This document shows positions 8,245 to 57,441 of a stretch of DNA of 64,000 nt, in pieces; position 1 is the first letter of the stretch, and each line of letters opens with the position of its first letter. Under the pieces are notes generated by a model, which saw only the letters and a program-made list of their open reading frames with translations, was not told where the DNA came from and did not search any database. The position numbers and the translations under genes were made by a program. Origin of the DNA: Myxococcota bacterium (lineage in GTDB: Bacteria > Myxococcota_A > SURF-8); NCBI GenBank assembly GCA_963674735.2, contig CAXXQS010000002.1, positions 2,080,001 to 2,144,000 on the forward strand, written 5' to 3'.

Positions 8245-8273
8245 TTGACGCCGTGTCAGACTGTTGGTACGCT
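8245..8273 (+). promoter_or_regulatory. Candidate sigma70 promoter of the metF-hdr operon
   Basis: TTGACG-N17-TACGCT with TG extension, about 200 nt upstream of ATG 8471. Confidence 0.55.
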
Positions 8274-8470
8274 AAATACAGTACAGATACAATCAATCGC
8301 GAGAACACCTTCTGTTCATGCTGCGGTTCAAGATTCGTACTGTTCCCTTTGCTGCCCCACTACCCCGCTCAAACGGCGCACAATCCGATTCGTAAACAGC
8401 CCGAATGGAGATCAAGAAGTCACACCGGACTTTCCGGTAATCGGTCCCCCCTTCAGAAATGGGAGGTGCT

Positions 8471-9343
8471 ATGACTTTCTCTCAGTCCATCGGGGAGAAC
8501 GGATTCGCCTTGATTGCCGAGGTCGATCCGCCCAAGGGCGTCAATCTCGACGATTTCGAGCATCACGCGCAATCGCTCAAATCCCGTGTCGATACCCTCG
8601 CGGTAACCGACAACGAGCACGCCGTGATGCGCATGGCTCCCTGGGCTCCCTGCCATCGTCTCATCACGCTCGGCTTCGACCCCTGGATCGTCCTCAACGC
8701 TCGCGACCGTAACCGACTGTCTTTGCAGGCGGATCTGCTCGGGGCGGCGGCGCTGGGGGTGCGCCACGTGCTGGTGAAGGAGGGGCTCGATCCCGATTGG
8801 GGCGATCAGCCCATGGTACGCAGCAGCGGCGACCTGGATATGGTCACCATGGTCAAATGCGTCCAATCCCTCAACAACGGGAGGGATCTGGGAGGAGAGG
8901 AACTGAACGGGAAACCGGCCTTTTCCATCGCGGCGGGTCTGGAGCTGTCGGACGACATCGGCACCAATCGCAAACGCGCCGACCAGATGATGGAGCTGGC
9001 CGAGCTCGGAGTCGATACGGTCGTGCTCGGTCCCACTTACGACCGCAATATTCTGGACCTCTTCGCCGAGAAAGCGGAGAGTGCCGATATCACGCTCATC
9101 GCCACCTTGATGCTGTTGAAATCGGTGGCCATGATTCGGTATCTCAACCACCTGCCCGGTGTTCCGGCCGTCCCGCATACCTATCTCAAAGACATGCTGG
9201 ATGCCCCGGTGAAGACGCAGGCGGGGGTGGAAATCGCCGCTACCTTCTACAAGGATCTGCAAGAGGTCTGCCGGGGGGTGCTGTTGCAAGGCCTGGGCTG
9301 GGGTCCGCGTTTGATCCCCTTCCTGGACCGGATCGGGCGCTGA
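8471..9343 (+). CDS. Methylenetetrahydrofolate reductase-like paralog (divergent)
   Basis: AEVDPPKG, VTDN, RDRNRLSLQADLLGAAALG align with the MetF at 17171. RBS GGAGG. Confidence 0.8.
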   Translation: MTFSQSIGENGFALIAEVDPPKGVNLDDFEHHAQSLKSRVDTLAVTDNEHAVMRMAPWAPCHRLITLGFDPWIVLNARDRNRLSLQADLLGAAALGVRHVLVKEGLDPDWGDQPMVRSSGDLDMVTMVKCVQSLNNGRDLGGEELNGKPAFSIAAGLELSDDIGTNRKRADQMMELAELGVDTVVLGPTYDRNILDLFAEKAESADITLIATLMLLKSVAMIRYLNHLPGVPAVPHTYLKDMLDAPVKTQAGVEIAATFYKDLQEVCRGVLLQGLGWGPRLIPFLDRIGR

Positions 9344-9344
9344 T

Positions 9345-10931
9345 ATGACCGCAGGGCGCAGCATGTCGGTCGGGTCGATCACCCAGTCGCTGTTCAATGC
9401 CCTGGACGGATTGGGCTCGCCGCTGATGCTGGCTACCATCATCGAAGGCACCCCGAACGGCGTGCTGGTGGCCGACCGCCGCCACATGATCCATTACGCC
9501 AATCCTTCCGCCCTGCGTATGACCGGTTTCGACATCGACGACTTGCAGGATCGCAGCATTCCCGATCTGCTGGGTTTGACGGAGGCGGAAGTCGCCGTCG
9601 AATGTCGGTCGTTGGCCGGACCGCCCGAAGCCCTTGAAAAACGACCGCGCCACGAACTGATTATCGTCAACCGCACGAGCGGCGAGCGCTATTACGTCGA
9701 AGCGAGTTTTCTGCGTCCCCATCCGGAGCACGACCGCTACGCGGTTTTACTGGTGGACATCAACGAGCGCAAGCAACTCGAAATCGAACTCAGGCGACGC
9801 AATTCGTTTTTCCACAAGCTGATCGATTCGTCGGTGGACGGCATCATCGCCTCCGACATGAAGGGCCGCCTGATTCTGTTCAACCAGGGCGCGCAACAAC
9901 TGCTCGGCTATACCGAAGAGGAAGCGCGGCGGGACGTGCATGTCACCAAGCTGTATCCCGAAGGGGAGGCCGAATCCATCATCCGCCGCATGCGTTCGGA
10001 CCAATACGGCGGCCGCGGCAAGCTGTTGCGTCATGAACTGGTGGCCATCACCAATACCGGAACGGCGATTCCGATGAGCTTTTCGGGCGGCATCATTTAC
10101 GATGACGGCCAGGAAATCGCCACCTTCGGGATCTTCACCGATCTGCGTCGCATCCAGAAGGCCGAAGAGGACTTGCAGCAGACGCATCAGATGCTGCAGC
10201 AGTCGGAGAAAATGGCCGGACTGGGACGTCTGGCGGCGGGGGTGGCGCACGAAATCAACAACCCCATGTCGGGGATCATGCTCTACGCCAATCTGGCGCG
10301 GGAGGAATTGGGCGACGAACACGCCTCGGCCGCCGATCTGGATGTCATTATCCGTGAGGCGGAGCGCTGCAAAACCATCGTTTCCGACCTGCTGGAGTTT
10401 TCTCACGAGCACGCCTACGACATGGGCTGCGTCGATCTCAACGATATCATCACCAAAACCCTGGCGCTTTTGGAAATGCAGCCGCTGTTTCACAACATCC
10501 GGCTCGAACTGGATCTCGATCCCGAGTTGATGTCCATTCAGGGGAACGCCGCCAAGCTGAGCCAGGTGGTCATGAATCTGCTGATCAATGCCGCCCAGGC
10601 CATGGACGGGCGCGGCGTGTTGCGGGTGGCCAGCCGGACGCGCGCCCACGGCGGTATGGTGGAATTGAGTATTGCCGACAGCGGTCCGGGCATCGATGCG
10701 GTCAATCTGCCGCGCATCTTCGATCCGTTTTTCACCACCAAAGCGCAGGGCAAGGGCACCGGTCTGGGCTTGAGCGTGTCGTATGCCATCGTGAAAGAAC
10801 ACAAGGGCACCATCCGGGCTCGTTCCGAAGAAGGGAAAGGGGCTACCTTCATGCTGCGCTTTCCCATTATGGAAACGGGCTGTGGGGGTCGCCGGGAAAC
10901 GGAAACCATCGGCCGGGAGGAAACGTCATGA
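9345..10931 (+). CDS. Cytoplasmic PAS-PAS sensor histidine kinase (NtrB-like)
   Basis: Two PAS-like segments, AHEINNP H-box, NAAQA, DSGPG, FDPFFTTK, GTGLGL. No obvious TM helix. Confidence 0.9.
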   Translation: MTAGRSMSVGSITQSLFNALDGLGSPLMLATIIEGTPNGVLVADRRHMIHYANPSALRMTGFDIDDLQDRSIPDLLGLTEAEVAVECRSLAGPPEALEKRPRHELIIVNRTSGERYYVEASFLRPHPEHDRYAVLLVDINERKQLEIELRRRNSFFHKLIDSSVDGIIASDMKGRLILFNQGAQQLLGYTEEEARRDVHVTKLYPEGEAESIIRRMRSDQYGGRGKLLRHELVAITNTGTAIPMSFSGGIIYDDGQEIATFGIFTDLRRIQKAEEDLQQTHQMLQQSEKMAGLGRLAAGVAHEINNPMSGIMLYANLAREELGDEHASAADLDVIIREAERCKTIVSDLLEFSHEHAYDMGCVDLNDIITKTLALLEMQPLFHNIRLELDLDPELMSIQGNAAKLSQVVMNLLINAAQAMDGRGVLRVASRTRAHGGMVELSIADSGPGIDAVNLPRIFDPFFTTKAQGKGTGLGLSVSYAIVKEHKGTIRARSEEGKGATFMLRFPIMETGCGGRRETETIGREETS

Positions 10932-11482
10932 CGTTGCCCGAGATCAGACCGGCGGAGGGCAGCCGCCACCTCAAGCGCGAACTGAAGGCGGCCGGACTGG
11001 ACGTGGCGGCCTGTTACCAGTGCGGGCGTTGCTCGGCGGGCTGTCCCATCGCGCCGTTTTACGATCTCTTGCCCATGCAGGTGATTCGTCTGGCGGCTTA
11101 CGGGATGGAACGCGAACTGATGCAAAGCCACACCATCTGGCTCTGCGCGTCTTGTGAAACCTGCTCGACGCGCTGCCCCAACGCCATCGATATCGCGGGG
11201 GTGATGGATTTTCTGCGCGAGTGGGCCTTGAGCCACGGTCTCGAACCGGCCGAGCCGCGCGTGGCCGCTTTCCACAAAGCCTTTTTGCACTCCATCGAGC
11301 GCGGGGGACGCACCTTCGAGTTGGGCATGATGGGACGCTACAAATGGCTGAGCGGCGACTGGTTTGGGGATATGGGGCTCGGCTTGAAAATGCTGGGACG
11401 CGGCAAGCTGCGTTTGATTCCGCAGGGCGTGAAGGACAAGCGCGGGGTACGGCGTTTGTTTATCCGCGCCGGGAAGGATTGA
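10928..11482 (+). CDS. hdrC: Heterodisulfide reductase subunit C
   Basis: CYQCGRCSAGCP and IWLCASCETCSTRCP; precedes hdrB. Confidence 0.9.
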   Translation: MTLPEIRPAEGSRHLKRELKAAGLDVAACYQCGRCSAGCPIAPFYDLLPMQVIRLAAYGMERELMQSHTIWLCASCETCSTRCPNAIDIAGVMDFLREWALSHGLEPAEPRVAAFHKAFLHSIERGGRTFELGMMGRYKWLSGDWFGDMGLGLKMLGRGKLRLIPQGVKDKRGVRRLFIRAGKD

Positions 11483-11485
11483 CGC

Positions 11486-12355
11486 ATGAAAATGGCCTAC
11501 TATCCGGGCTGCTCGTTGGAAGGCAGCGCTAAGGACTGCGACCGCTCCGTGCGGGACGTGGCGGCGCGCCTCGGGGTCGAGCTGGTCGAACTGGAAGACT
11601 GGAGTTGTTGCGGGGCGAGTTCGGCTCATATGACCAACCAACGCCTGGGCATTCTACTGGGCGCGCGCAACCTTTTGATTGCCGAACGGACCGGCCTCGA
11701 CGTGCTGGTGCCCTGTTCCGCCTGCTACCAGCGTCTGAAAGCCGCCGATCACGCCTTGCGCGCGGATCCGGTGGCTTGGGAGGTGGAGCGCTACGAACCT
11801 GAATTCGAAATCGTGCACCTCTCGCGTTTTCTGGTGCAGCCGCAGGTGTTGGCCCTGTTGAAAGAGCGGGTGACGCATCCGCTGAGCGGTCTGAAGGCGG
11901 CTTGCTATTACGGTTGTTTATCGCTACGACCGCCCGACCTCACCGGCGCGGCCGATGCCGAGCAACCGCAGGCGTTGGCGCAGGTGATGGAGGCGTTGGG
12001 CGTCGAGGCGGTGCCCTGGAGCCATGCCACCGAATGTTGCGGCGGCAGCCTGACGGTCGCGCGGCCCGATATCTCGCGGCAGTTGGTGGGCGATCTGGTG
12101 ACGGCGGCGCGGCGCGGCGGGGCGGATGTGATCGTCACGGACTGCCCCATGTGTCAAGCCAATCTCGAATCGCGCCAGTTGGATCTGGCCGAGAACGAAA
12201 ACCTGAAAATGCTGCCGGTGATGTTCCCGACGGAACTGGCCCTGCTGGCCTTGGCGGAGGAAAAAACAGCTCCGCGTTTTCCGGCGCATCTGATCGATCC
12301 CGGACCGGCGCTTATGGCCGCGTTGACGGCGACGGAGGAAGCCCATGAAGCCTGA
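11486..12355 (+). CDS. hdrB: Heterodisulfide reductase subunit B (two CCG domains)
   Basis: YYPGC, WSCCG, PCSACY, YYGC, ECCGG, DCPMCQ. Confidence 0.9.
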   Translation: MKMAYYPGCSLEGSAKDCDRSVRDVAARLGVELVELEDWSCCGASSAHMTNQRLGILLGARNLLIAERTGLDVLVPCSACYQRLKAADHALRADPVAWEVERYEPEFEIVHLSRFLVQPQVLALLKERVTHPLSGLKAACYYGCLSLRPPDLTGAADAEQPQALAQVMEALGVEAVPWSHATECCGGSLTVARPDISRQLVGDLVTAARRGGADVIVTDCPMCQANLESRQLDLAENENLKMLPVMFPTELALLALAEEKTAPRFPAHLIDPGPALMAALTATEEAHEA

Positions 12356-15300
12356 CGACCCCGGCAAGCAGGCGCGTTCCGCCTCGGAGGCGGCAGACGG
12401 CCAACCGACGGCGGGTCCGCCGGTGGGCGCGGTGCTGGTGGTGGGGGGCGGCATCAGCGGCATGCAGAGTGCGCTCGATCTGGCCAACGGCGGCTTCAAG
12501 GTATATCTGGTCGAGGCCGCTCCGGCGGTGGGCGGACGTATGGCCCAGCTCGATAAAACCTTTCCCACCAACGATTGCGCCATGTGCATCGTATCGCCCA
12601 AACTGGTGGAACTGGGGCGTCACAAGAACATCGAGTTGCTCACCTATAGCGAGGTGGAAGCGCTCGAAGGCGAGATGGGGCATTTTACCGTAACGGTTCG
12701 ACAACGACCGCGTTTCGTCGATCCCGATGCCTGTACCGGTTGCGGCGCCTGCGAGCAGGCCTGCCCGGTTACGCAGCGTGCATATTTCCCCGAAGCGTCG
12801 TCCGACGGAAGCCCCGCCAAGCCCAAACGCGGCGGTGAAAAGCGCGTCTTGCCGTTCCGATCCGAGGCGCGTCCGCAGTTGAACGACGCCCCCGCCTGGG
12901 GCTTTTCGGTGGACGAAGACGCCTGCAAGAAATGCGGAATGTGCGCGCGCGCCTGTCCGGTGGCCGCGATTGACTGGGAGAAAAAGCAGGTAGCCCATAT
13001 CGATCCCGATGCCTGCATCGGCTGCGGCAGCTGTTATGTGGTGTGCCCGCCCAAGGCCGACGCCATCCGTATCGCGAACGCCGCCGAATGGCAACGCGGG
13101 GTGGGCGCGGCGCTTCTGGCGCGGTCGGCGGCCTTGAAGAAGGCGGCCACGGCGCAGGATGAATCCGATTGCCTGCGCTGCGGACTGTGCCAGGTGATGT
13201 GCGACAAGGTGATGGGTGTCAGCGCTCTGCGCCTTACGAAAGACGGCATCGAGACGGCCCGGGACGTGTGTCAGACCTGCGGGGCCTGCGTGTCGGTGTG
13301 CCCGGTGGGCTTTTTGTCGATCGACAAGATGAGCGTCCACACGCCGCGTCCGCTTTTGAGCGACTTCAACGAACGGCTCGCACCGCGCAAGCCGGTGTAC
13401 ATCCTCTATCCGCAGGCCGTGCCGCGCGTGCCGGTGATCGATACGGAGGCCTGCGTGCGCCTCAACAGCGGCCATTGCGGCACCTGCGCCACCCTGTGCG
13501 ACGCCGGAGCGATTCGCTACGACGACGCCGAGAAGCTGCGCCGCTTCGAGGTCGGCTCGGTGATTTTGTCGCCGGGTTACGAGGTCTTCGATGCGGCCCG
13601 GCGCGGCGAATTCGGCTACGGCGTGTATCCCAATGTCATGACCAGCCTCGAATTCGAGCGTCTGCTCTCCGCCTCGGGGCCTACCAGCGGCGAGATCCGC
13701 CGCCCGTCCGACGACACTCACCCCAAGCGCATCGCCTGGATTCAGTGCGTGGGATCGCGGGACGTCACCTGCCAGCGCGATGCCTGCTCGTCGATCTGCT
13801 GCATGTACGCCACCAAGGAAGCCGTCATCGCCCGCGAGCACGACAAGCGTATCGAGGCGACGGTGTTCTATATCGACATGCGCAGCTTCGGCAAAAACTT
13901 CGACAGCTACGTCGAACGCGCCCGCTCGCATTACGGCGTGCGCTACCTGCGCGCCATGGTCAGCCGCATCTACGATGATCCGGTCACTCACGATATGGAA
14001 CTGCGCTATGTGGATGAGGCCGGGGAGCAAAAACGGGAAATTTTCGATCTGGTGGTGTTGAGTGTGGGGGTACAGACGGGCTCGACGGCGCGCAAGCTGG
14101 CCGAGCGGCTGGGAGTCGAGCTCGATTCCCTGGGCTTCGCCGCCCATTCCGCACTCAGACCGTTGGCCACCAACCGGCCCGGCATCTTCGTATCCGGCGT
14201 GTTCAGCGCCCCGAAAGACATTCCCGAGACGGTCAGCGAAGCCAGCGGCGCGGCGGGCGCGGCGGCGGCCGAGCTGCAACTTGCGCGTCATACGCTCACC
14301 GCGCAAAGCGACTTTCCCCCGGAAAAAGCCGTCAACGGACACGATCCGCGCATCGGCGTGCTCGTGTGCCATTGCGGCATCAACATCGCCTCGGTGGTGG
14401 ACGTGCCGGATGTGGTCGAATACGCCCTGAGCCTGCCGCATGTGGTCTACGCCGAGCATCCGCTCTACACCTGCTCGCAGGATACCCAGGAACGCTTGCG
14501 CGACCTGATCGGCGAACACGACCTCACCCATTTGGTGGTGGCGGCCTGCTCGCCGCGCACCCACGAACCGGTGTTCCAGGAAACCATGCGCCAGACGGGC
14601 CTGAATCCCTACCTGTTCGACATGGCCAACATTCGCGATCAATGCAGTTGGGTGCATCCTTCCGAACCCGAGCGTGCGACCGCCAAGGCTAAACGGCTGG
14701 TGTCGATGGCCGTGGCCAACGTGGCGCAGGCCGAAGCCCTGCACGACCACGAGTTCCCGGTCGACTCGCGCCTGCTGGTGATCGGCGGCGGGGTGGCGGG
14801 CATGTCGGCGGCGCTGTTGGCGGCGCGTCAGGGTTTCGGCGTGTATCTGGTCGAGAAGGAAGCGGAACTGGGCGGCCTGCTCAATCGCCTGCGCCGAACG
14901 GTCGAGGGCGAGAATGTGTTGGCCTATATGCATTCGCTGATTCAGGCCTTGAAAGACGAGCCGAAGGTGCAGGTCTTTCCCGGATCGGAAGTGGTGGCGC
15001 ATAGCGGTTTTGTGGGCAGTTTCGAAACGGAGATCATGACGCCCACCGGCGCGAGCCGCGTGGTCAAGCACGGGGCGACGATCGTCGCCACCGGCGGGGG
15101 CGAGGCGCGTCCCGATCTGTATTGCCTGGGCAGCCACGAGCGCGTCGTCACCCAGCTCGATCTGGAAGGCATGCTGGAAACGGAAGATGGCTTGGACCAG
15201 GCCGCGCCGCAGGTGGCGATGATTCTCTGCGCCGGGTCGCGCGACGACGCCTTTTTGCCCTACTGCTCGCGCGTGTGCTGCAACCAGTCGATCAAAAATG

Positions 15301-16052
15301 CGCGGGCGCTGATGGCCCGTTATCCCGAAGCCCGCGTGGATGTGCTGTACCGCGATATCCGTAGCTATGGATTGGGCGAACAGGCCTACCGCGAAGCGCG
15401 CCGCGCCGGAGTCAACTTCATTCGCTACGATCCCGACACCAACCCGATTCAGGTCGAACCCAAGGGCGTGGGTTTCGAGCTGCGCGTGGTGGATCCGTCC
15501 ATCGCCCGCACGGTGGTTTTGGAGCCCTCTTTATTGGTATTGGCTACCGGGATCGAGTCGGCCGAGGCCGACGAACTGGCCACCATGCTGCGGGTGCCGC
15601 GCAATCCGAACGGCTTTTTCTTCGAGGCCCATGCCAAGCTGCGCCCGGTGGATTTTGCCAGCGAGGGACTCTTTCTGGCCGGATTGGCCCATGGACCGAA
15701 GTCCATAACGGAAACCCTGTCGCAGGCCTCGGCGGCCGTGGCGCGCGCCGCCGTGATTCTATCGAAAGACAGCTTGCGGCTTTCGGGCGTGGTGTCGCGT
15801 GTCGATGCGGAGCGCTGCGCCGTATGCCTGACCTGCGTGCGCGCCTGCCCTTACGGGGTGCCGGTGATCAACGAGGAGCACACCGCCGAAATCAATCCGG
15901 CCTTGTGTCAGGGTTGCGGAATTTGTGCGGCGGAATGTCCGGCCAAAGCCATCACGCTTGGCCGTTATCGTGACGAAAACGTGTTTGCGAAACTGGAAGC
16001 CTATGCGGTGGCCGTTGCGCCGCCGGTTTCCCCGGGAGGTCCGGATGTCTGA
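12345..16052 (+). CDS. hdrA: Large heterodisulfide reductase subunit A (two FAD modules, polyferredoxin insert)
   Basis: GGGISG and GGGVAG FAD motifs, LDKTFPTNDCAMC, QCVGSR...CSSICC, CHCGIN, AACSPR, NIRDQC, LCAGSR...CSRVCC, and eight ferredoxin-type Cys motifs. Confidence 0.9.
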   Translation: MKPDDPGKQARSASEAADGQPTAGPPVGAVLVVGGGISGMQSALDLANGGFKVYLVEAAPAVGGRMAQLDKTFPTNDCAMCIVSPKLVELGRHKNIELLTYSEVEALEGEMGHFTVTVRQRPRFVDPDACTGCGACEQACPVTQRAYFPEASSDGSPAKPKRGGEKRVLPFRSEARPQLNDAPAWGFSVDEDACKKCGMCARACPVAAIDWEKKQVAHIDPDACIGCGSCYVVCPPKADAIRIANAAEWQRGVGAALLARSAALKKAATAQDESDCLRCGLCQVMCDKVMGVSALRLTKDGIETARDVCQTCGACVSVCPVGFLSIDKMSVHTPRPLLSDFNERLAPRKPVYILYPQAVPRVPVIDTEACVRLNSGHCGTCATLCDAGAIRYDDAEKLRRFEVGSVILSPGYEVFDAARRGEFGYGVYPNVMTSLEFERLLSASGPTSGEIRRPSDDTHPKRIAWIQCVGSRDVTCQRDACSSICCMYATKEAVIAREHDKRIEATVFYIDMRSFGKNFDSYVERARSHYGVRYLRAMVSRIYDDPVTHDMELRYVDEAGEQKREIFDLVVLSVGVQTGSTARKLAERLGVELDSLGFAAHSALRPLATNRPGIFVSGVFSAPKDIPETVSEASGAAGAAAAELQLARHTLTAQSDFPPEKAVNGHDPRIGVLVCHCGINIASVVDVPDVVEYALSLPHVVYAEHPLYTCSQDTQERLRDLIGEHDLTHLVVAACSPRTHEPVFQETMRQTGLNPYLFDMANIRDQCSWVHPSEPERATAKAKRLVSMAVANVAQAEALHDHEFPVDSRLLVIGGGVAGMSAALLAARQGFGVYLVEKEAELGGLLNRLRRTVEGENVLAYMHSLIQALKDEPKVQVFPGSEVVAHSGFVGSFETEIMTPTGASRVVKHGATIVATGGGEARPDLYCLGSHERVVTQLDLEGMLETEDGLDQAAPQVAMILCAGSRDDAFLPYCSRVCCNQSIKNARALMARYPEARVDVLYRDIRSYGLGEQAYREARRAGVNFIRYDPDTNPIQVEPKGVGFELRVVDPSIARTVVLEPSLLVLATGIESAEADELATMLRVPRNPNGFFFEAHAKLRPVDFASEGLFLAGLAHGPKSITETLSQASAAVARAAVILSKDSLRLSGVVSRVDAERCAVCLTCVRACPYGVPVINEEHTAEINPALCQGCGICAAECPAKAITLGRYRDENVFAKLEAYAVAVAPPVSPGGPDV

Positions 16053-16509
16053 TTTCGATCCCAATGTGGTGGTTTTCGCCTGCCGTCATTGAGCGTACAC
16101 CGCGGCGGACCTGGCAGGTTCGGAACGGCGTGCGTACCCGGATTCCTTGTCCGTGGTGATGGTCCCCTGCACCGGGCGGGTGGATGAAGGAATGTTGCTC
16201 AAAAGCTTCGAAAAGGGAGCCGACGGCGTGATGGTGGTGGGGTGCCTGGAGGGCGACTGCCATTTCGAGCGCGGCAACTTGCGCGCCAAGGCGCGTGTGG
16301 GTCGCAGCGCCGCCATTCTCGACGCCGCCGGGGTGGGCGGGGCACGCGTACGGATGTTCAATCTGAGCGCGGGCGAGGGAAACAAGTTCGCCGCCTACGC
16401 CAACGAATTCGTCGAACAGATTCGCGACTTGGGGCCGAGCCCGATCAACCGGATTCGACGCGGTTTGCCCGTGTCGCCATCGGCGGCCGAACAGGAGGAA
16501 ACGCCATGA
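16045..16509 (+). CDS. mvhD: MvhD/FlpD 2Fe-2S subunit, selenoprotein (Sec at codon 16)
   Basis: RBS GGAGG and ATG 16045 give MSDFDPNVVVFACRH-TGA-AYTAADLAG, in frame with ORF 16147-16509 (PCTGRVD, GADGV, GCLEGDCHF). TGA at 16090-16092 occupies a conserved Cys position. Confidence 0.9.
16093..16137 (+). promoter_or_regulatory. Bacterial SECIS hairpin
   Basis: Upper stem CGGACCT/AGGTTCG (16106-16112/16116-16122) with a G-led GGC loop starting after a 20-nt spacer from the TGA. Lower pairing includes GTAC/GTAC. Confidence 0.75.
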
Positions 16510-17174
16510 TCATGGGAAGCGCCAAACCCCTGGATGAAATTCTGGCCATGATCGAACCCTACGACCGCATCATCCTGGCGGGTTGCAACGGCTGCGTCAC
16601 CGTCTGCCGCGCAGGCGGGGAAAAAGAAGTCGGGATCATGGCCTCGGCGCTCAGGCTGGCACGCGAAACCGCCGGGCGGCCGCTTGAGATCCGCGAAATC
16701 ACGCTGGAACGCCAATGCGATCCCGAATATCTGGAGGGCGTGCGCCCGTTCATCAGCGACTATCAGGCGCTGTTGTCTATCGCCTGCGGCGCGGGCGTGC
16801 AGTTTATGGCCGAGAAATACCCACGCACCCCGCTTTTACCCGGCATCAACACGGCCTTTATCGGCGTCACCGAACGTCAGGGCGAATGGGCCGAGCGCTG
16901 CCAGGCCTGCGGCGACTGCGTGCTGCACCTCACCGGCGGCATCTGCCCGGTCACCCGCTGCTCCAAGAGTATTTTCCACGGACCCTGCGGTGGGTCCAGC
17001 GACGGGCGCTGCGAGGTGGACAAGAACATCCTGTGCGGTTGGCAACTCATCATCGACCGCCTCAAATCCCTGAACCAGATGGACAATTACCTGAAGCTGC
17101 ACGACATGAAACGCTGGCGCGCCAGCCGGGACGGCGGGCCGCGAAGCATCGTGCGGGAGGACTTGCAGGAATGA
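16506..17174 (+). CDS. metV: Methylene-THF reductase small Fe-S/Zn subunit
   Basis: GCNGCVTVC, ERQCD, ACGAGVQ, ERCQACGDC, GGICPVTRCSKSIFHGPCGG, CEV, CGW. ATGA overlap with mvhD. Confidence 0.85.
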   Translation: MIMGSAKPLDEILAMIEPYDRIILAGCNGCVTVCRAGGEKEVGIMASALRLARETAGRPLEIREITLERQCDPEYLEGVRPFISDYQALLSIACGAGVQFMAEKYPRTPLLPGINTAFIGVTERQGEWAERCQACGDCVLHLTGGICPVTRCSKSIFHGPCGGSSDGRCEVDKNILCGWQLIIDRLKSLNQMDNYLKLHDMKRWRASRDGGPRSIVREDLQE

Positions 17175-18097
17175 AAAGCGGAAGCCAACTCGAACGGATG
17201 TTTGCGGCGGGGCATTTCGTGTTGACCGGCGAATGCGGACCGCCGCGCGGGGCGCGGGCGGAGACGGTACACGAGAAGGCGAAACTCCTCAAGGGCTGCG
17301 TGGACGCCTGCAACGTGACCGACAACCAGACCTCGGTGGTGCGCATGAGTTCCATGGCGGGCTGTTTGCTGCTTCAGCAAAACGGCATCGAACCGACCCT
17401 GCAGATGGTGGTGCGCGACCGCAACCGCATCGCGCTACAGTCGGATATTTTGGGGGCGGCGGCGATGGGCATCGGCAACATGCTGTGTCTGTCGGGCGAC
17501 CACCAGATCTTCGGCGACGATCCGCAGGCAAAAAACGTCTTCGACATCGATTCCATCCAGCTGATCGGGCTGGTTAAAATGATGCGCGACGAAGGCGTGT
17601 TTCCCTCGGGCAAGGAAATCCAGGGTCCGCCCAAGATGTTCATCGGCGCGGCGGTCAATCCCTTCGCCGATCCCTACGAAATCCGCGTACCGCGCCTGGA
17701 GCTGAAAGTGAAAGCGGGGGTCGATTTCGTCCAGACCCAATGCATCTACAACCTGGAGAAATTCGAGCGCTATATGGAAGACCTGCGCAAAAAAGGTCTG
17801 CACGAAAAGGTGTACATCATGGCCGGGGTGACGCCGCTCAAAAGCGCGGGCATGGCCAAATTCATGAAGCGCATGGTGGCGGGCATGGACATCCCCGACG
17901 ACGTGATTGCGCGTGTGGCCGCCGAGCCCAAGGAAAAACAGGCGGATAAAGGCATCGAAATCGCCATCGAGACCATTCAGAGAGTGCGCGAAATCGAAGG
18001 GGTGGCCGGGGTGCACCTCATGGCCATCGAATGGGAAGAGAAAGTCGCCGAAATTACCGAGCGGGCGGGGCTTTTGCCGCGTCCGATTTTGGATTGA
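17171..18097 (+). CDS. metF: 5,10-methylenetetrahydrofolate reductase
   Basis: GECGPPRG, NVTDNQ, RDRNRIALQSD, LSGDH, KVKAGVDFVQTQ, GVHLM. ATGA overlap with metV. Confidence 0.9.
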   Translation: MKSGSQLERMFAAGHFVLTGECGPPRGARAETVHEKAKLLKGCVDACNVTDNQTSVVRMSSMAGCLLLQQNGIEPTLQMVVRDRNRIALQSDILGAAAMGIGNMLCLSGDHQIFGDDPQAKNVFDIDSIQLIGLVKMMRDEGVFPSGKEIQGPPKMFIGAAVNPFADPYEIRVPRLELKVKAGVDFVQTQCIYNLEKFERYMEDLRKKGLHEKVYIMAGVTPLKSAGMAKFMKRMVAGMDIPDDVIARVAAEPKEKQADKGIEIAIETIQRVREIEGVAGVHLMAIEWEEKVAEITERAGLLPRPILD

Positions 18098-18137: not shown

Positions 18138-18521
18138 ATGGAAGCAAGCAAGAAAGTCCTGCTGGTGGATGACGATCCGGATTTCGTGGAAGCGGTCAAA
18201 GTGTTGGTGGTCAAAGCGGGTTACGATGTGGACGTGGCTTACGACGGCAAGGAAGGTCTGGAAAAGATGGACGAGTTCCACCCCGATCTGGTGGTGCTGG
18301 ACGTGATGATGCCGGTGATGGACGGCCATGGGATGTGCGAGGCGCTAAAAAAGAACCCCGCTACGGCCAAAATTCCGGTGATTCTGCTCACGGCCGTGGC
18401 CGATCACGTGACGTCGAGCACCTACACGCATCGGGACATGCTGGAAAGCGACGCGGAAGATTACATTCCCAAGCCGGTCGAGCCGCAGGAGCTGCTGCAG
18501 CGCATTCAACACTGGCTATAG
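18138..18521 (+). CDS. Single-domain response regulator
   Basis: VLLVDDD, LVVLDVMMP, ILLTA, YIPKP. RBS AGGAGG. No output domain. Confidence 0.9.
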   Translation: MEASKKVLLVDDDPDFVEAVKVLVVKAGYDVDVAYDGKEGLEKMDEFHPDLVVLDVMMPVMDGHGMCEALKKNPATAKIPVILLTAVADHVTSSTYTHRDMLESDAEDYIPKPVEPQELLQRIQHWL

Positions 18522-18581
18522 GCAACAATGGGCAAGGGCGTCCGCCTCCGGCGGGCGTCGCGCCCGATGAGGAGCGCCACC

Positions 18582-20090
18582 ATGGGGGCCACAGCAGAGG
18601 TGTTGATCATCGATGACGAACAGGTCATCCGCGACGGCTGTGAACGCGCGCTGTCGTCGGAGGGCTACGCCGTCACCCAGGCCGACGGGGGAAAGCCGGG
18701 GATTCGCTTGCTGGGCGAGCGCGATTTCGATGTGGTATTGCTCGATCTCATGATGCCGGGTATCGACGGCTTCGAGGTGCTGGGGTGGATTCAGAAAAAC
18801 CGTCCGCAGCTTCCGGTGGTGGTCATTACCGGTTTCGCCACGGTGGCGAAGGCCGTCAGCGCCATGAAACAGGGCGCCTTCGACTTCGTCGGCAAGCCGT
18901 TCACCCCCGATTACATCCGCATCGTCGTCCGGCGCGCCATCGAAAAACAGCGTCTGGCGGCGGAAGCCGAGGCCTTGAAAAAGGCTCGCGCGCGTGATCT
19001 GCTGGCTATCGCCGAGGAACAAAGCCGCCTGAAAACGGTTTTCCAGTGCATGATGGAAAGCGTGCTGATCACCAACCGCGACGGCGTGGTGGTGCACCAC
19101 AACCCGGCCGCCGTGAACGTTTTGCAATTGCAGAGCGATCCGGTGATCGGCAAACCGTTGTCGGCTTCGGTGGACGATCCGAAACTGCTGAACATGGTGC
19201 GCGAAGCGGTGGACGAGGCCAAAGGCGTGACGCGGGAATTCGCCCCCGGATCCATTTCGCGCTTGTGGTTGCAGGCGCACTGCTCGCCGATTCTGGACGC
19301 CGATGGCGAGCCCTTGGGATCGGTGACCGTCTTCGAAGACATCACCACCCGGAAACAGATCGACCAGCAGAAGTCGGAATTCGTCGCGATGGTGGTGCAT
19401 GAACTGCGTGCGCCGCTGGCGTCGGTGGAGCAGATGATCTACGCCATGGGCGCCAGCTGCGATCGCATCGTCGGCTCGCCCTGCGAAAACCTGCACGAAC
19501 GCATGACCGCCCGTACGCGCGAGCTTCTGCAACTCATCGCCAACCTGCTCAATTTGTCGCGGCTGGAGTCGGAATCGCTGGTCGTTGCACGCGAGCCGAT
19601 GTGTGGCGACGAGATCTTAAAAAACGTGGTGGAGGTGCTCAAGCCGCAGGCGGAAAAAAAGAACATCGAGTTGGCTTTCGAGAGCGCGCCTTCAGCCTGG
19701 TGGTTCAACGGCGATTACGCCTACATCCGCAGCGCGTTTATGAATGTCGTGGGCAATGCCGTCAAGTACACCCCGGAAAACGGGCAGGTGGAAGTCCGGT
19801 CGCAGATGGCGGGCGGACTGGTGAACGTGTGCATCTCCGACAGCGGCATCGGGATTGGGGCGGATGATCTGGCGCATATCTTCGACCGCTTCTACCGGGT
19901 CTCCACGGCGGCCACGCGCCGCATCACCGGGTCGGGATTGGGGTTGTCGGTGGTGAAAAAAGTCGTCGAGGCGCATAACGGTTTCATCGACGTCCGGTCG
20001 GAACCGGGGCTGGGAACGACGTTCACCCTGAGTTTTCCCATGGTCGATCCCCCTCAAAACGGGAACACTCCGACAGCCGCAGGCGCGTAA
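18582..20090 (+). CDS. Hybrid REC-PAS-histidine kinase
   Basis: N-terminal REC (IIDDE, LLDLMMP, VITG, GKPF), PAS, VHELRAP H-box, NAVKY, DSGIGI, FDRFYR, GSGLGL. Confidence 0.9.
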   Translation: MGATAEVLIIDDEQVIRDGCERALSSEGYAVTQADGGKPGIRLLGERDFDVVLLDLMMPGIDGFEVLGWIQKNRPQLPVVVITGFATVAKAVSAMKQGAFDFVGKPFTPDYIRIVVRRAIEKQRLAAEAEALKKARARDLLAIAEEQSRLKTVFQCMMESVLITNRDGVVVHHNPAAVNVLQLQSDPVIGKPLSASVDDPKLLNMVREAVDEAKGVTREFAPGSISRLWLQAHCSPILDADGEPLGSVTVFEDITTRKQIDQQKSEFVAMVVHELRAPLASVEQMIYAMGASCDRIVGSPCENLHERMTARTRELLQLIANLLNLSRLESESLVVAREPMCGDEILKNVVEVLKPQAEKKNIELAFESAPSAWWFNGDYAYIRSAFMNVVGNAVKYTPENGQVEVRSQMAGGLVNVCISDSGIGIGADDLAHIFDRFYRVSTAATRRITGSGLGLSVVKKVVEAHNGFIDVRSEPGLGTTFTLSFPMVDPPQNGNTPTAAGA

Positions 20091-20099
20091 GCCCGCCGG

Positions 20100-21149
20100 T
20101 CAGATCCAGCGTTCGAGGCAGGCGCGATAAGCGGTGGTCACCACCGGCAGTCCGGCACGGCTCGCCACGGCCGTGCGTCGCCGTTCCATTTCCTCCGCCG
20201 AATCGGTGGGATCGTCGATCACGTTTTCCACGCGTTCCATCAGGCGTTGCAGGGATTTCTCGATGTTGAGGTGGGGCTTGCTTCGTTGCAGGCCCGGCAG
20301 GTCGTCTTCGGCCAAGGCACCGTCGATGTCGAATGCGACGACGAAGGCCCCGGCGGCGAGGGCTTCCCAAACCAGCGGACCGAGAATCCCGCGTCGTTGG
20401 GCGAGCAGGACGCAACGCGTCTCACCGAACAGCGCCGCGCGGGCGGCGGGGCCGGGGTCGGGAAGTCGAGCGGTTGTCCCCAGTTGCTTGTCGGGCAGGC
20501 GTTCCTGAGGACCGAACAGGGTCAGCGGCAGATCGGGCCAGCGTTTGGCGCAGACATCCAGCAGCAAGCGTAGCAGGTTGATATCGGTTTGATCCCAACC
20601 GCCGAGAACCAGACCGCGCCGTTGCCCGATCGGTTTTCGCGGTTTGAAGACCTCCAGATTCACCGGCGCAGGCACAATCGCCAGACGCTCCGACGGCAGG
20701 TAATGTGCCAAAAAGTCATGTTGAGCGGGACTTGTGGCCACGGCTCCGCAAAGCTCGCTCAAAAAGCGGCGGAACGGCCAGGCCGATTCCAGCACTTCGG
20801 GTGAATGCTGAAAGGTCGCCAGCCAGCGGCGCCCGTTGAACGAAGAGCCGGAAAAGGCATCGCCGTAAAGACACCACCACAGGGTGTTCGTCGGCGTGAG
20901 CGGGTCGAGCCGGGCCAGCCATTCCTGCCGGAAAAGCGCTCCCTGACAGAAACGATTGCCGGAACGATCCGCCAGATTGTCGAAACCGTTCATGGACAAG
21001 CGTCCGGCGCTGCGCCGCCAGAGAGGAGCGTTGCAGGCCTGGTTCGCCAGGGCGAAGGCTTCCAGATCGGCCATATGTCCGCCATAAGGATGTTCGGCCG
21101 GTGGCGCAAAACAACGGGTGGGCGGGCCGCTTGGTAAGGACAGGATCAT
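20100..21149 (-). CDS. Glycosyltransferase family 4-like protein (degenerate)
   Basis: N-terminal YGG, IVPAPVNLEVF, C-terminal GILGPLVWEALAAGAFVV resembling the GT4 EGFGxxxLEAMAxGxPVV motif. Confidence 0.6.
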   Translation of the reverse strand: MILSLPSGPPTRCFAPPAEHPYGGHMADLEAFALANQACNAPLWRRSAGRLSMNGFDNLADRSGNRFCQGALFRQEWLARLDPLTPTNTLWWCLYGDAFSGSSFNGRRWLATFQHSPEVLESAWPFRRFLSELCGAVATSPAQHDFLAHYLPSERLAIVPAPVNLEVFKPRKPIGQRRGLVLGGWDQTDINLLRLLLDVCAKRWPDLPLTLFGPQERLPDKQLGTTARLPDPGPAARAALFGETRCVLLAQRRGILGPLVWEALAAGAFVVAFDIDGALAEDDLPGLQRSKPHLNIEKSLQRLMERVENVIDDPTDSAEEMERRRTAVASRAGLPVVTTAYRACLERWI

Positions 21150-22240
21150 CGCGGCCTCTTTTCGAAGCTGCGCCGACGATCGCGTCTGGCCAGGCTACCG
21201 CGCAGGCGTTCGACCAGCGAACGGCGCGTCATCTCGACCAGCGAGGCCATTCCGATGGGCTTCGGAATTTGGGGAAGCAATCCGAAGGCGGTCGCGATTG
21301 CGGGGTCTTCCCAGTCGCTGTGGCGGTTGGGATAGCGGACGCCGTTGGAAGTGGTCACCACGCCCCCAGCTTCCAGAAAATGGCGCAGCGGATTTCCCGT
21401 GGGGCTTTCGAAACCGAACGACGGCAGGGCGAGCGCCATTTCCACATTGGGCAGCCAGTCCAAAGGGTAAGGTCTGGGTTTTGAATACAGTTCGACCGGG
21501 GGCGCAAAGACGTTGCCGAGCTTGGGGACGCTCTGCCGCGGGGTAGCGGAGACGCTGCCATCGGAATACACGGTTATGAAACGTCCGCCCGCCCAGGAGG
21601 GCAGACCCTTGACCGCCGGATCGGCGAAAAAGGCGCGTAACGTGGTGTCGGCGGCGAAACGCCATAACAACGTTTCCGATCGAAACGAGGACATCCGGTC
21701 CCAGGTGGCCAGACGTTCGGGGAAAATTCCCAGGGGAAAGCCGATATCGGCGAAGGTCTCGACCAGTTCGGCGAGACGGGGTTGGTCTTCCCGTTGCGGC
21801 GCCCACATCAAGGTGGCTTCCACCCCGCTATGGCGCAACTCGATCAGCCGTTCCAGCACCCAGGGTAGGTTTTCGGATATCGGTTTGTAAACCACGGTCA
21901 GATCGCAACGTTCGGGGATCAGGGGAACGCGACGCACAAAGGCTTGCTGCACGCCGTCGAACAGGGTGGAGACGACCAAATGAAAATGGGGATGATCGGA
22001 CAGGATGTCGATCAGGGTCAGCAGAGCGGGGTGATCGAGTTCGATGGGCTTTTGCAATTGCAGGCTGATGGGCCGTGGACCGAAAGCCCGTTCGAACGCG
22101 TCGATCCAGCGGCGGACGTCCTCCTCCCAGTTTGCGGCATCTTTTCCCGGCCAACGCCAGTCGATCCATAAACGCGGCATGGATGCCGGCTCGGCGGATG
22201 TTGATGAATTGGCGGAATCGGATTCGAGGTGTTCCGGCAC
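21146..22240 (-). CDS. Hypothetical protein with radical-SAM/SPASM-like pattern lacking cysteines
   Basis: KGLPSWAGGRFITVYSDGSVSAT...LGNVF...PRPYP follows the SPASM/twitch pattern with Cys replaced. GTG start with RBS; ATGA overlap with the downstream gene. Confidence 0.55.
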   Translation of the reverse strand: MPEHLESDSANSSTSAEPASMPRLWIDWRWPGKDAANWEEDVRRWIDAFERAFGPRPISLQLQKPIELDHPALLTLIDILSDHPHFHLVVSTLFDGVQQAFVRRVPLIPERCDLTVVYKPISENLPWVLERLIELRHSGVEATLMWAPQREDQPRLAELVETFADIGFPLGIFPERLATWDRMSSFRSETLLWRFAADTTLRAFFADPAVKGLPSWAGGRFITVYSDGSVSATPRQSVPKLGNVFAPPVELYSKPRPYPLDWLPNVEMALALPSFGFESPTGNPLRHFLEAGGVVTTSNGVRYPNRHSDWEDPAIATAFGLLPQIPKPIGMASLVEMTRRSLVERLRGSLARRDRRRSFEKRPR

Positions 22241-22261
22241 CGGTGAACTCCCTTGGGATCG

Positions 22262-23731
22262 TCAGCCGAGCAACGACCGGTAGGTGTCGAGGTAGTGGCT
22301 GGCGGTGTGATCCCAGGTGAAACTCTGCTCCATCGCACGTTTGGTAATGCGCTTGAACATCTTTTTGTTTTTGTAAAACGAGACGGCGCGCCAGACGGTT
22401 TTGAGCAGTTCCGTGGAATCGTAGGTGGAAAAGCGAAAACCCCAGCCATCGCTGCCGGTTTCGTCCACATCCTTGACGCTATCGGCCAGTCCGCCGGTGG
22501 CACGCACGATGGGAACCGCGCCGTAGCGCATGGCGTACATCTGGTGGGTGCCGCAGGGTTCGAAGCGACTCGGCATCAGCAGAAAGTCGGATCCGGCCAT
22601 AATCGTGTGAGCGATGCGATTCGACTCGATCAGGTTCAGGCCGAACTTGTGCGGGAAGCGCATCTTGATGCTTTCGAACAGCTTATGGTATTTCGGATCG
22701 CCGGTGCCCATCATCACCAGAGTCAGATCGAAGGACATCAGCTTGTCGAATACCGGGCGCAACAGATCGAAGCCCTGGCTGTCGGTCAGACGGGTGATCA
22801 TGCCGATGGTGGGAATGTCCAGATTCGAGGAATCGAGGCCGTTGCGCGCCAGCAGTTCCTTTTTGCAGGCCCGTTTGCCGGTCATGTTGGCCGGGCTGAA
22901 GTTTTCGACGATCAGCTCGTCGCTTTTCGGTTCCCAGGCGCTGTAATCGACGCCGTTGAGGATGCCGATGTAGTCGTCGCCGCGACCGGCGAGTTCGGGT
23001 TGCAAGCCATACCCCTGTTCGGGATCGCTGCGGGTTTCCTCCGCGTACTGCGTGCTGACGGTCACCACCTTGTCGGCGAACAAAACCCCGGCCTTGAGAT
23101 AATTGAGGCGGCTGTTGCGCCGGTAGGGGCCGTCGGGCTCGAAAAGCGACGGTGACAAGCCGATGGTGTCGGCAAACGTTTCTTCGCAATCTCCCTGAAA
23201 CGCCACATTGTGCATGGTCAGCAGGGTCTTGGACTGCTCCAGCGCCGTCGCGTCACCCAAGCCGGATTTGAGCATGGCGGGTAAAAGGGCAGTGTGGTGA
23301 TCGTTGACGTGCAGCAGATCGAAAGCCGGTTTCACTTGAGCGGCCCAACCGATAACCGCTTTTTGGAAAAAAGCGAAGCGCCGGGGGTTGTCGGCGAAAC
23401 CGATACCGTTCGAGGGATTGGTGTAAATGCCGTCGCGACCGAAGAAAGTGTCGTTTTCAATAAAGATAACGGGAACATCGGTGCCGGGCAGGGTGGCGTA
23501 GTGGAAGCGTGCGGGGTGGGTTTCGTGGCCGAGGCGCACCTCCGTCTTCGCCGGGTATTCGCAGGGGTTGATTTCCGTTACCTTGCGGTTTATCTGGCGA
23601 TAAAGCGGTGTGATAATGGTGACATCCAGTCCTTCACGACGCAAGGCGGCCGGGACGCGGGCGGAAAACTCGGCCAGGCCGCCAACATGCGAGAAGGGGA
23701 TTAACTCGGCTGTACAAAACAGAATTCTCAC
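22262..23731 (-). CDS. glgA: Glycogen/starch synthase (GT5)
   Basis: VGGLA, HVNDHHT, TMHNVAFQG, TVSTQYA, GILNGVD, MPSRFEPCG, GAVPIVRATGGLAD. Confidence 0.85.
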   Translation of the reverse strand: MRILFCTAELIPFSHVGGLAEFSARVPAALRREGLDVTIITPLYRQINRKVTEINPCEYPAKTEVRLGHETHPARFHYATLPGTDVPVIFIENDTFFGRDGIYTNPSNGIGFADNPRRFAFFQKAVIGWAAQVKPAFDLLHVNDHHTALLPAMLKSGLGDATALEQSKTLLTMHNVAFQGDCEETFADTIGLSPSLFEPDGPYRRNSRLNYLKAGVLFADKVVTVSTQYAEETRSDPEQGYGLQPELAGRGDDYIGILNGVDYSAWEPKSDELIVENFSPANMTGKRACKKELLARNGLDSSNLDIPTIGMITRLTDSQGFDLLRPVFDKLMSFDLTLVMMGTGDPKYHKLFESIKMRFPHKFGLNLIESNRIAHTIMAGSDFLLMPSRFEPCGTHQMYAMRYGAVPIVRATGGLADSVKDVDETGSDGWGFRFSTYDSTELLKTVWRAVSFYKNKKMFKRITKRAMEQSFTWDHTASHYLDTYRSLLG

Positions 23732-56235: not shown

Positions 56236-57441
56236 ATGGCTTTTATTAAAGATTCATCATCAGATTATTATGAGCCAATGACATCGGAAGAATTCCGCTC
56301 TTTTTACCGTAATGGTCGACGAGAATTTGTAAATATTAGCTTTTTGGATGTTGAACTTGAGAACTTTGATAATATTGAATCAGTAGTATTTTCTAATTGC
56401 ATATTTGAGTCGGTAAAATTTGAGCAACAAATAATTAGGAATCTACGTTTTAAAAATTGTCGCTTTAGTAAAACAAACTTTAATAATAGCCAGTTAAGAG
56501 TATTCTTTCAGGATTGTATTTGTGAGCACCTAAATTTCAAGGCTGACGGCAATGCACTAATAATATTTTATGATAGTCAAATTGACCAGATGTCTTATGC
56601 GGGCAATTTGCGTATTATAGTATGCAAAGGAAAGGTTAAAAAATTAACGATCAAAAACATGTCCGATGTTTCTGCATCACGATTTTCAAATTGCAATATA
56701 GAACGTTTTGAATTTCAAGAAGGAGCAATGTGTAACACTCAATTTGTCTATTCAGAATTACATGAGTTGCGTCTAAAAAAAATAAACCTATCAGGAAGCA
56801 AATTCAAACATTGCACACTCAATATTCTAAACTTTAAAAATATTATTAGCTATGATTACGTTGAATTTGTTAAGTCATCTTTTTCTACAACCATTTTTAC
56901 TACGCCTTTTAATTCACCCATATATCAAGACATACCCTGCAATGGTATCAAACTGGTAGACAATAACGGAGGATTAGAATTTCAGCGTTATCTAAAAACT
57001 CAAGCCTATATAAATGAGTTTGCGAGCCAACACTCCTTTTCAGCTAGCGTCTGGCGTTGGACTTCATGTTACGGCCAATCATTGCTTCTCATTTTAGCCT
57101 GGGCAACACTGTTCTCAATTGGTTTTGGTTTTATTTATCATCTCAATATTACGAGTCTTAATTTTCCAGAGAGTGATCAGGCATGCTATTATCTAAACTA
57201 TGAACTTTTAGGACCGAGGAGTGAAGCTCAAGAAAAAATATTTTCTTCTGTAAATTGCAGGTTTTTCTGGATCAACTCTTATTATTTTAGTTTTGTGACA
57301 TTTACGACACTTGGATATGGTGACATAACAGGAAAAACAATTCCAATACGAATCATTGTTATTCTTGAGTCCTTTTTGGGATATTTCCTTTTGGGGATGA
57401 CTTTGGGTGTAATGGTCAATAAATTTATTGTTAGGCCATAA
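56236..57441 (+). CDS. Pentapeptide-repeat protein with C-terminal two-TM potassium-channel pore domain
   Basis: F.NC.F repeats; W..TS.YGQS; YYFSFVTFTTLGYGDI selectivity filter; ES.LG. Confidence 0.85.
   Translation: MAFIKDSSSDYYEPMTSEEFRSFYRNGRREFVNISFLDVELENFDNIESVVFSNCIFESVKFEQQIIRNLRFKNCRFSKTNFNNSQLRVFFQDCICEHLNFKADGNALIIFYDSQIDQMSYAGNLRIIVCKGKVKKLTIKNMSDVSASRFSNCNIERFEFQEGAMCNTQFVYSELHELRLKKINLSGSKFKHCTLNILNFKNIISYDYVEFVKSSFSTTIFTTPFNSPIYQDIPCNGIKLVDNNGGLEFQRYLKTQAYINEFASQHSFSASVWRWTSCYGQSLLLILAWATLFSIGFGFIYHLNITSLNFPESDQACYYLNYELLGPRSEAQEKIFSSVNCRFFWINSYYFSFVTFTTLGYGDITGKTIPIRIIVILESFLGYFLLGMTLGVMVNKFIVRP

Follow-up and report, generated by a model that had tools for sequence, protein, structure and literature searches.

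In the acetogens Moorella thermoacetica and Sporomusa ovata, methylene-tetrahydrofolate (methylene-THF) is handled by an Hdr-type methylenetetrahydrofolate reductase (MTHFR), MetVF-HdrCBA-MvhD, whose subunits are reported to be only loosely associated and whose mechanism and second electron acceptor are given as unresolved in the parts of the published accounts that concern the complex (PMC9430772; PMC6085437). Of all steps of the Wood-Ljungdahl pathway, the one carried out by this reductase is understood least, its partner acceptor and its coupling to energy conservation being still open (PMC9430772). In this work, we analyzed a 64,000-nucleotide stretch of a Myxococcota bacterium genome (GenBank assembly GCA_963674735.2, contig CAXXQS010000002.1, positions 2,080,001 to 2,144,000 of the forward strand; this whole stretch is called the window, and positions are counted from its first letter), which contains an operon with the same six enzyme genes as the acetogen clusters. 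The operon begins with a gene for a non-canonical protein of the MTHFR fold (MetFL, 290 amino acids, 8471..9343), followed by the gene for a soluble histidine kinase (HK1, 9345..10931), and all of its genes lie on the + strand. A non-canonical MetF, two kinases, a receiver protein and a probable selenoprotein form of MvhD distinguish the window operon, and none of these is mentioned for the acetogen clusters in the parts of that report describing them (PMC9430772). The hdr-mvhD-metVF clusters of marine Chloroflexi resemble the window in having two-component genes among the Hdr and MetVF genes, but their account, in the parts treating these clusters, notes 'phoBR' flanking metF_1 and no non-canonical MetF as a constant partner (PMC5736913). 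We found no description of a non-canonical MetF clade in the literature, where supplementary figures or tables may show such genes. In three old lineages, one of two paralogous copies of the reductase is accompanied by an extra, conserved protein resembling MetF and by a phosphorelay of its own, which could offer a handle on the control of this CO2-fixation step.

The open reading frame of MetFL spans 8459-9343. Homologues have their start at position 8471, where an ATG stands downstream of GGGAGGTG; this bears out the start given in an earlier, sequence-only reading of this DNA and makes MetFL a protein of 290 amino acids. Residue numbers given for MetFL refer to the 294-amino-acid translation from 8459, and those of the real protein are lower by 4. 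MetFL scored 24.0 bits against the Pfam MTHFR family (PF02219), exactly at the cut-off of 24, and 22.9 bits, not over the cut-off, in a profile scan of its own genome, and it shares 28% identity with the canonical MetF of its operon (E 1e-34). Neither MetFL alone nor the profile of its family matched any MTHFR of solved structure by sequence, and the connection to these enzymes is made through the operon's MetF, through a clade-wide profile and through the fold. The operon's MetF matched the Thermus MTHFR with an E value of 3.6e-11, its SGD and TQ aligning with the RGD and TQ of the Thermus enzyme. The AlphaFold2 model of MetFL has a mean predicted local distance difference test score (pLDDT) of 88.2, with low values only in the loop 111-120, and when it was aligned with the Thermus MTHFR structure 1v93 by VIA-align, a Z score of 25.4 and a root mean square deviation of 3.4 over 274 residues were obtained. 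The 23 best entries in the structural ranking were all MTHFRs, a Foldseek search with the model reached an E value of 3.2e-13, and a search of the ESM Atlas returned MTHFR clusters only. MetFL, as modelled, has the TIM-barrel fold of MTHFRs.

Within this fold, residues that are nearly invariant in canonical MetF have been replaced. The motif comparison made in the sequence-only reading proved correct: relative to the operon's MetF, MetFL keeps the Glu motif IAEVDPP (E..PP), VTDN (with TDN) and RDRNR, whereas LSGD is changed to KEGL and KVKAGVDFVQTQ to LAELGVDTVVLG, and opposite the RGD and TQ of the Thermus enzyme MetFL reads EGL and LG(P). Its statement that the aspartate of GD and the glutamine of TQ are lost was borne out for the family as a whole when residues were counted in 121 family members and 101 canonical MetF representatives. 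At position 110, equivalent to Asp120, the family has H (89), Q (21), I (6), L (4) or R (1), with D or E in 0 of 121, while the canonical frequency of D is 0.99; at position 191, equivalent to Gln183, it has G (117), A (2) or S (2), with Q in 0 of 121 as opposed to a canonical frequency of 0.98. The Glu at position 21 is present in all 121 members (canonical E, 0.93), and the residue immediately after the Asp120 equivalent, position 111, is D in 119 of 121. In the clade-wide profile alignment, it is a P that faces the Q of the human and Thermus enzymes. We take these positions to correspond, in E. coli numbering and in role, to Glu28, Asp120 and Gln183; the titles of two Protein Data Bank (PDB) entries among the structural neighbours refer to the first two of them (1zp4, 'Glu28Gln mutant ... 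complex with methyltetrahydrofolate'; 6pey, 'MTHFR with mutation Asp120Ala'). The canonical residues T19, N48, K180, Q189, G216, G235 and H275 are also gone from the non-canonical clade, and K180, H275 and N48 presumably take part in flavin binding. At the same time, the motifs TD, RDRNR, GDQP and LGPTYD are invariant or almost so across the MetFL family. Judged by these replacements, MetFL most likely does not reduce methylene-THF.

The branch that carries these replacements is old. A profile search of 1.84 billion representatives yielded 3419 proteins at E <= 0.001, and in a FastTree phylogeny of the window's MetFL and MetF together with 125 hits of at least 270 amino acids from the best 150, MetFL fell inside a clade of 26 rows without GD and TQ (support 99), the other 101 rows being canonical (support 99). 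In a quick IQ-TREE tree of 51 hand-chosen rows, the 15 canonical rows made up one side of a branch (98 in the Shimodaira-Hasegawa-like approximate likelihood-ratio test, SH-aLRT), and the type of the window (lineage A), its sister lineage B and three singletons formed a group of 17 rows (98), within which A was sister to B (90). A search recovered 688 relatives of MetFL; the 120 relatives listed mostly had 290-297 amino acids and about 50-64% identity to the window protein, and they came mostly from Desulfobulbales and from metagenome-assembled genomes labelled Myxococcota. In 27 sequences at 51-64% identity to MetFL, 66 columns are invariant. On the evidence of these trees and alignments, MetFL is an old non-canonical branch of MetF under strong purifying selection and not a recently decayed duplicate, so that the sequence-only reading, in which MetFL was a degenerate MetF paralog, was right about the loss of canonical residues but not about decay. 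The carriers are sulfate reducers and their relatives, with cultured Desulfobulbales among them. Cultured strains that carry MetFL include Desulforhopalus singaporensis DSM 12130, Desulfosediminicola flagellatus IMCC35005 and Desulfoprunum benzoelyticum DSM 28570 (loci L006, L058 and L077). Three cultured Desulfobulbales each encode 6-8 MTHFR-like genes, including both an A-type gene and one of a third type, lineage C, and acetyl-CoA synthase was encoded in all four genomes searched for it.

Gene order was compared across the three lineages. For lineage A, 80 loci were kept of 129 confirmed ones found with the family alignment, and 79 of them have the order MetFL-HK-HdrCBA-MvhD-MetVF-REC(-REC-PAS-HK), with the HK1 gene directly after that of MetFL; the remaining locus is on a contig that ends 434 bases past MetFL. 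The adjacency of MetFL and HK1 is far beyond chance. In the window a single nucleotide separates the two genes (TGA-T-ATG), as the sequence-only reading had it, and in 63 of 74 lineage-A loci the distance from the stop of MetFL to the start of HK1 is between -20 and +18 nucleotides, where the outlying values may reflect wrongly called starts. Counted in all 80 loci regardless of contig ends, the downstream genes were HdrC in 74, HdrB in 72, HdrA in 66, MvhD in 60, MetV and MetF in 59 each, and REC in 58; wherever the contig is long enough (55 of 55 loci), REC comes after MetF, and the second kinase gene comes after REC in 9 of 9 loci that leave 900 bases or more for it. Lineage B, whose proteins are 39-43% identical to MetFL and which was present in 7 genomes among 401 sampled, has the order MetFL-HdrC-HdrB-HdrA-MvhD-MetV-MetF-HK-HK2, with a REC gene beyond. 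Lineage C is about 30% identical to MetFL and was represented by 80 metagenome loci kept of 446 confirmed. Its non-canonical MetF is followed by HdrL, a fusion of about 1400 amino acids of a GltD/NfnB-like domain with HdrA, which corresponds to the 'HdrL' type as that fusion is described in the relevant part of an earlier study (PMC2702500). MvhD, MetV, MetF and REC come after HdrL in this lineage, with REC after MetF in 18 of 18 loci with room. When a lineage-C protein was used as a query against the 401 genomes of the window's phylum, mostly canonical MetF was retrieved, and six contexts were uninformative.

In lineage C, signalling genes were also found directly upstream of the non-canonical MetF. 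Of the 59 loci that have 700 or more bases on that side, 57 were scanned, after removal of a duplicate and of a locus that had no open reading frame there. The open reading frame directly upstream encodes a signalling protein in 49 of the 57: in 21 it is a kinase, for the most part REC-PAS-HK, and in 28 a small protein resembling a receiver, 10 of these 28 reaching the Pfam cut-off. For the 8 loci with no such open reading frame, tblastn detected a kinase just upstream in 2. Small receiver-like proteins of 123-168 amino acids encoded upstream of the lineage-C MetF-like gene (loci L126, L131, L133, L137, L138, L153, L166, L184, L188, L191 and L199) have Glu-Pro in place of the acidic Asp pair, and the phospho-acceptor Asp is gone in two; by their sequences they look like pseudo-receivers.

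Since the position of the signalling gene shifts among the lineages, the constant unit is not the MetFL-kinase pair alone but a non-canonical MetF, the Hdr/MvhD/MetVF genes and one phosphorelay set, in which a receiver is combined with a PAS kinase and a REC-PAS kinase. The non-canonical MetF heads the enzyme genes in all three lineages. The same genome has a second operon outside the window, C2:337294-345117, which is a plain HdrCBA-MvhD-MetVF operon whose MetF and MetV are 64% and 61% identical to those of the window; within 328000-352000, which takes in some 9 kb before and 7 kb after this operon, no MetFL and no match to a kinase or receiver was found. In loci long enough to judge, MetFL was not seen apart from two-component genes, and plain operons have neither.

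We tentatively favour, at somewhat short of an even chance, a reading in which MetFL has no catalytic role and serves as a regulatory or sensory subunit that binds folate. The MetFL branch would have given up the residues that canonical MetF needs while staying under strong selection, and its gene would stand first in a specialised Hdr-MvhD-MetVF operon that has its own phosphorelay, formed by two kinases (PAS and REC-PAS) together with a receiver-only protein. MetFL would bind a one-carbon (C1) folate and thereby serve the module as its regulatory or sensory subunit; in the lineage of the window it might inform HK1 of the state of the methyl/methylene-THF pool or of the MetVF-Hdr complex, and the relay might adjust a second, conditional copy of the methyl-branch reductase of the Wood-Ljungdahl pathway. 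The fold, the residue losses, the conservation and the gene-order counts are observed; that MetFL binds folate, is inactive and touches the kinase, and what the relay acts on, we infer. The idea of a sensor is supported by residue losses that differ by lineage, which in lineage B extend to the Glu (all seven proteins have Q or R there), and by MetFL never having been seen apart from two-component genes. If so, MetFL could represent a new class of metabolite sensor derived from an enzyme, or of regulatory pseudoenzyme. A broader proposal, that the whole non-canonical clade consists of enzyme-derived folate sensors and that the receiver-only proteins act post-translationally on Hdr-MetVF, switching its activity or direction according to C1-folate and redox state, seems to us rather unlikely.

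A comparable arrangement is that of H-NOX and its kinase, in which a stand-alone cytoplasmic sensor is encoded beside an input-poor histidine kinase. MetFL and HK1 resemble this pair in that a small soluble protein, with a ligand-binding function that is putative in the case of MetFL, is co-translated with a soluble kinase encoded next to it; they differ from it in that MetFL is derived from an enzyme, HK1 has two PAS domains of its own, and the adjacency is found in one of three lineages. MetFL also resembles the prozyme of S-adenosylmethionine decarboxylase and the deoxyhypusine synthase paralogue of trypanosomatids, for which a paralogue without catalytic residues is described as kept by selection beside the active enzyme, which it regulates, in the portions of the reports dealing with these pairs (PMC6221367, PMC3663545). 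Unlike these dead paralogues, MetFL is encoded in a bacterial operon with a phosphorelay, and a pairing of MetFL with MetF would be hypothetical.

Several observations weigh against the sensory or regulatory reading. The adjoining of MetFL and the kinase is specific to lineage A. In lineage B, HdrC comes directly after MetFL in 7 of 7 loci, and the kinases, which are visible in the 4 loci of sufficient length, lie after MetF, about 8 kb from MetFL; in lineage C, HdrL is directly next to the non-canonical MetF in 53 of 55 loci with room. Because HdrC or HdrL is the immediate neighbour in these two lineages, the Hdr genes are the steadier neighbours of MetFL. Furthermore, the operon has no response regulator carrying a DNA-binding domain, and in lineage A both the invariant Glu and the Asp one residue past the lost Asp leave room for altered catalysis. 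None of the 22 longer relatives of MetFL is a fusion with a kinase, which is weak evidence; all 22 are fusions of homocysteine S-methyltransferase and MTHFR, at 28-37% identity.

The kinases may also have inputs of their own. HK1 has the domain order PAS-PAS-HisKA-HATPase by Pfam and no hydrophobic stretch (highest Kyte-Doolittle mean over 19 residues, 1.29), which confirms the earlier remark that it lacks a transmembrane input. Its mean column identity is 0.59 in PAS1, 0.80 in PAS2 and 0.88 in the DHp region. Neither H302 nor C342 varies in 27 orthologues, and the Cys, in the motif EAERCK, stands exactly 40 residues past the phospho-accepting His, a spacing that we take to be that of the redox-active Cys (redox box) of RegB. 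In the two lineage-B kinases that were viewed (L202:14027-15490 and L206:16938-18416), PAS1 is replaced by a Cys-rich N-terminal domain with four conserved Cys, in the form C-x11-C-x2-C and one upstream, which may be a metal- or Fe-S-sensing input. Owing to this domain and to the invariant Cys of HK1, it may be that the kinases sense redox state without MetFL, which would also count against a sensory role of MetFL. A prediction of the complex of HK1 and MetFL scored 0.00 against a mark of 0.32, but as the controls were not folded, it is no evidence in either direction. Mirror-tree partial correlations over 49 loci were 0.40 for MetFL and the kinase, 0.28 for MetFL and MetF, and 0.57 for the kinase and HdrC; these values are confounded by the fast rate that these genes share and were therefore not used as support.

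These results support in part the proposal of the sequence-only reading that MetFL is coupled to the signalling genes as the sensor subunit of the kinase. The residue losses and the joint occurrence with two-component genes agree with it, and HK1 adjoins MetFL in 79 of 80 loci of lineage A. However, the kinases of lineage B stand after MetF and the arrangement in lineage C is variable, so that direct adjacency is a feature of one lineage, and the Hdr genes are at least as tightly tied to MetFL. The phylogeny of MetF paralogs, which was suggested as a check, recovered a distinct non-canonical clade.

Alternatively, MetFL may be an accessory subunit of the Hdr-MvhD-MetVF complex, either as an inactive partner of MetF or as a second site for a substrate or effector, with the two-component genes regulating the operon separately. 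This explanation is doubtful but a serious contender. It agrees with the position of the non-canonical MetF directly before the Hdr genes in lineages B and C, and in the window the five genes at the head of the operon are spaced by 1-3 nucleotides or overlap, as expected of subunits that are produced together. The second electron acceptor reported as unknown and the loose association of the subunits would leave room for a further subunit, as far as the complex is characterized in the source (PMC9430772). On the other hand, the plain Hdr-MvhD-MetVF operons manage without MetFL, MetFL keeps company with signalling genes wherever the locus is long enough, and it evolves faster than the proteins it would join, the median identity to the window being 52% for MetFL and 72% and 73% for MetF and MetV, respectively.

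It is less probable still, and in our judgement improbable, that MetFL is active and catalyses a changed reaction on a folate-like substrate, perhaps independently of flavin or by another hydride or electron route, and is co-expressed with Hdr-MetVF. Such an enzyme would account for the strong purifying selection on the pocket residues, for the Glu and the Asp shifted by one in lineage A, and for the Glu that lineage C has at the Asp position. There are also precedents, known to us by their PDB titles, in the FAD (flavin adenine dinucleotide)-independent MTHFRs of Mycobacterium hassiacum and M. smegmatis (8bgr, Z 17.7) and in the MTHFR-like protein Cthe_2304 (3ijd, Z 19.4), which binds two 5-methyl-THF; they share the TIM barrel of MetFL (Z 17-19) and, according to the titles, depart from the flavin-dependent mechanism or simply bind folate. 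The MetFL-family profile has no sequence match to these proteins, the clade-wide profile matches only 3ijd, weakly (E 1.9e-4), and their gene context differs from that of MetFL. Moreover, lineage B has lost the Glu although its gene keeps the same operon position, several further near-invariant canonical positions are lost across the clade, and the operon already has the genes for a complete MetVF. That MetFL is a functionless, decaying duplicate has hardly any probability, since, in spite of a Pfam score only at the threshold and the lack of a sequence match to a solved structure, the intact frame, the many relatives with their invariant columns and an operon position fixed in three old lineages exclude it.

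The remaining genes of the operon are closely packed. The stop of HK1 overlaps the start of the gene for an HdrC-like 4Fe-4S subunit (10928..11482) as ATGA; this subunit matches Pfam Fer4 families, and its scores with the HdrC and QmoC models of NCBIfam stay under the cut-offs. It is followed by an HdrB-like subunit with two CCG domains (11486..12355; Pfam CCG, 91.6 bits) and an HdrA-like flavoprotein of 1235 amino acids (12345..16052), which has two FAD-binding parts and several 4Fe-4S motifs by Pfam and NCBIfam and scored 948 bits with the HdrA2 model of NCBIfam, under the cut-off of 1100. The next gene encodes MvhD (16045..16509), whose real start overlaps the stop of HdrA and which contains an in-frame TGA (16090-16092) within the motif FACRH-U-AYTAADLAG. 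When the TGA was read as U, the FlpD profile was covered from 1 to 123 with 147.8 bits, compared with 29-123 and 108.2 bits for the open reading frame from 16147, and MvhD of the window is probably a selenoprotein. MetV (16506..17174; Pfam PF12225, 117.8 bits) has ATGA overlaps at both its 5' and its 3' end, and the canonical, MetVF-type MetF (17171..18097; Pfam MTHFR, 134.7 bits) has both SGD and QTQ. The overlapping pairs are HK1/HdrC, HdrB/HdrA, HdrA/MvhD, MvhD/MetV and MetV/MetF. The operon continues with a receiver-only response regulator (REC, 18141..18521; Pfam Response_reg, 95 bits), which carries DD, D, T and K where canonical receivers have them, and with a REC-PAS-HisKA-HATPase hybrid kinase (HK2, 18528..20090; Pfam). 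As to promoters, sigma-54-like matches number 62 where 72 are expected, none of them being conspicuous, and there is one weak sigma-70-like site at 8264-8293.

Directly after HK2, the stretch 20100-23731 on the - strand contains a glycogen/starch synthase-like gene (22262-23731) and two open reading frames with weak or no assignment, which are probably unrelated to the operon. Farther along the window, the GC content falls to 0.36 between 56000 and 60000, compared with about 0.6 elsewhere; a pentapeptide-repeat/ion-channel protein (56236-57441) and three open reading frames without a Pfam match share this low-GC stretch, which is probably a foreign island.

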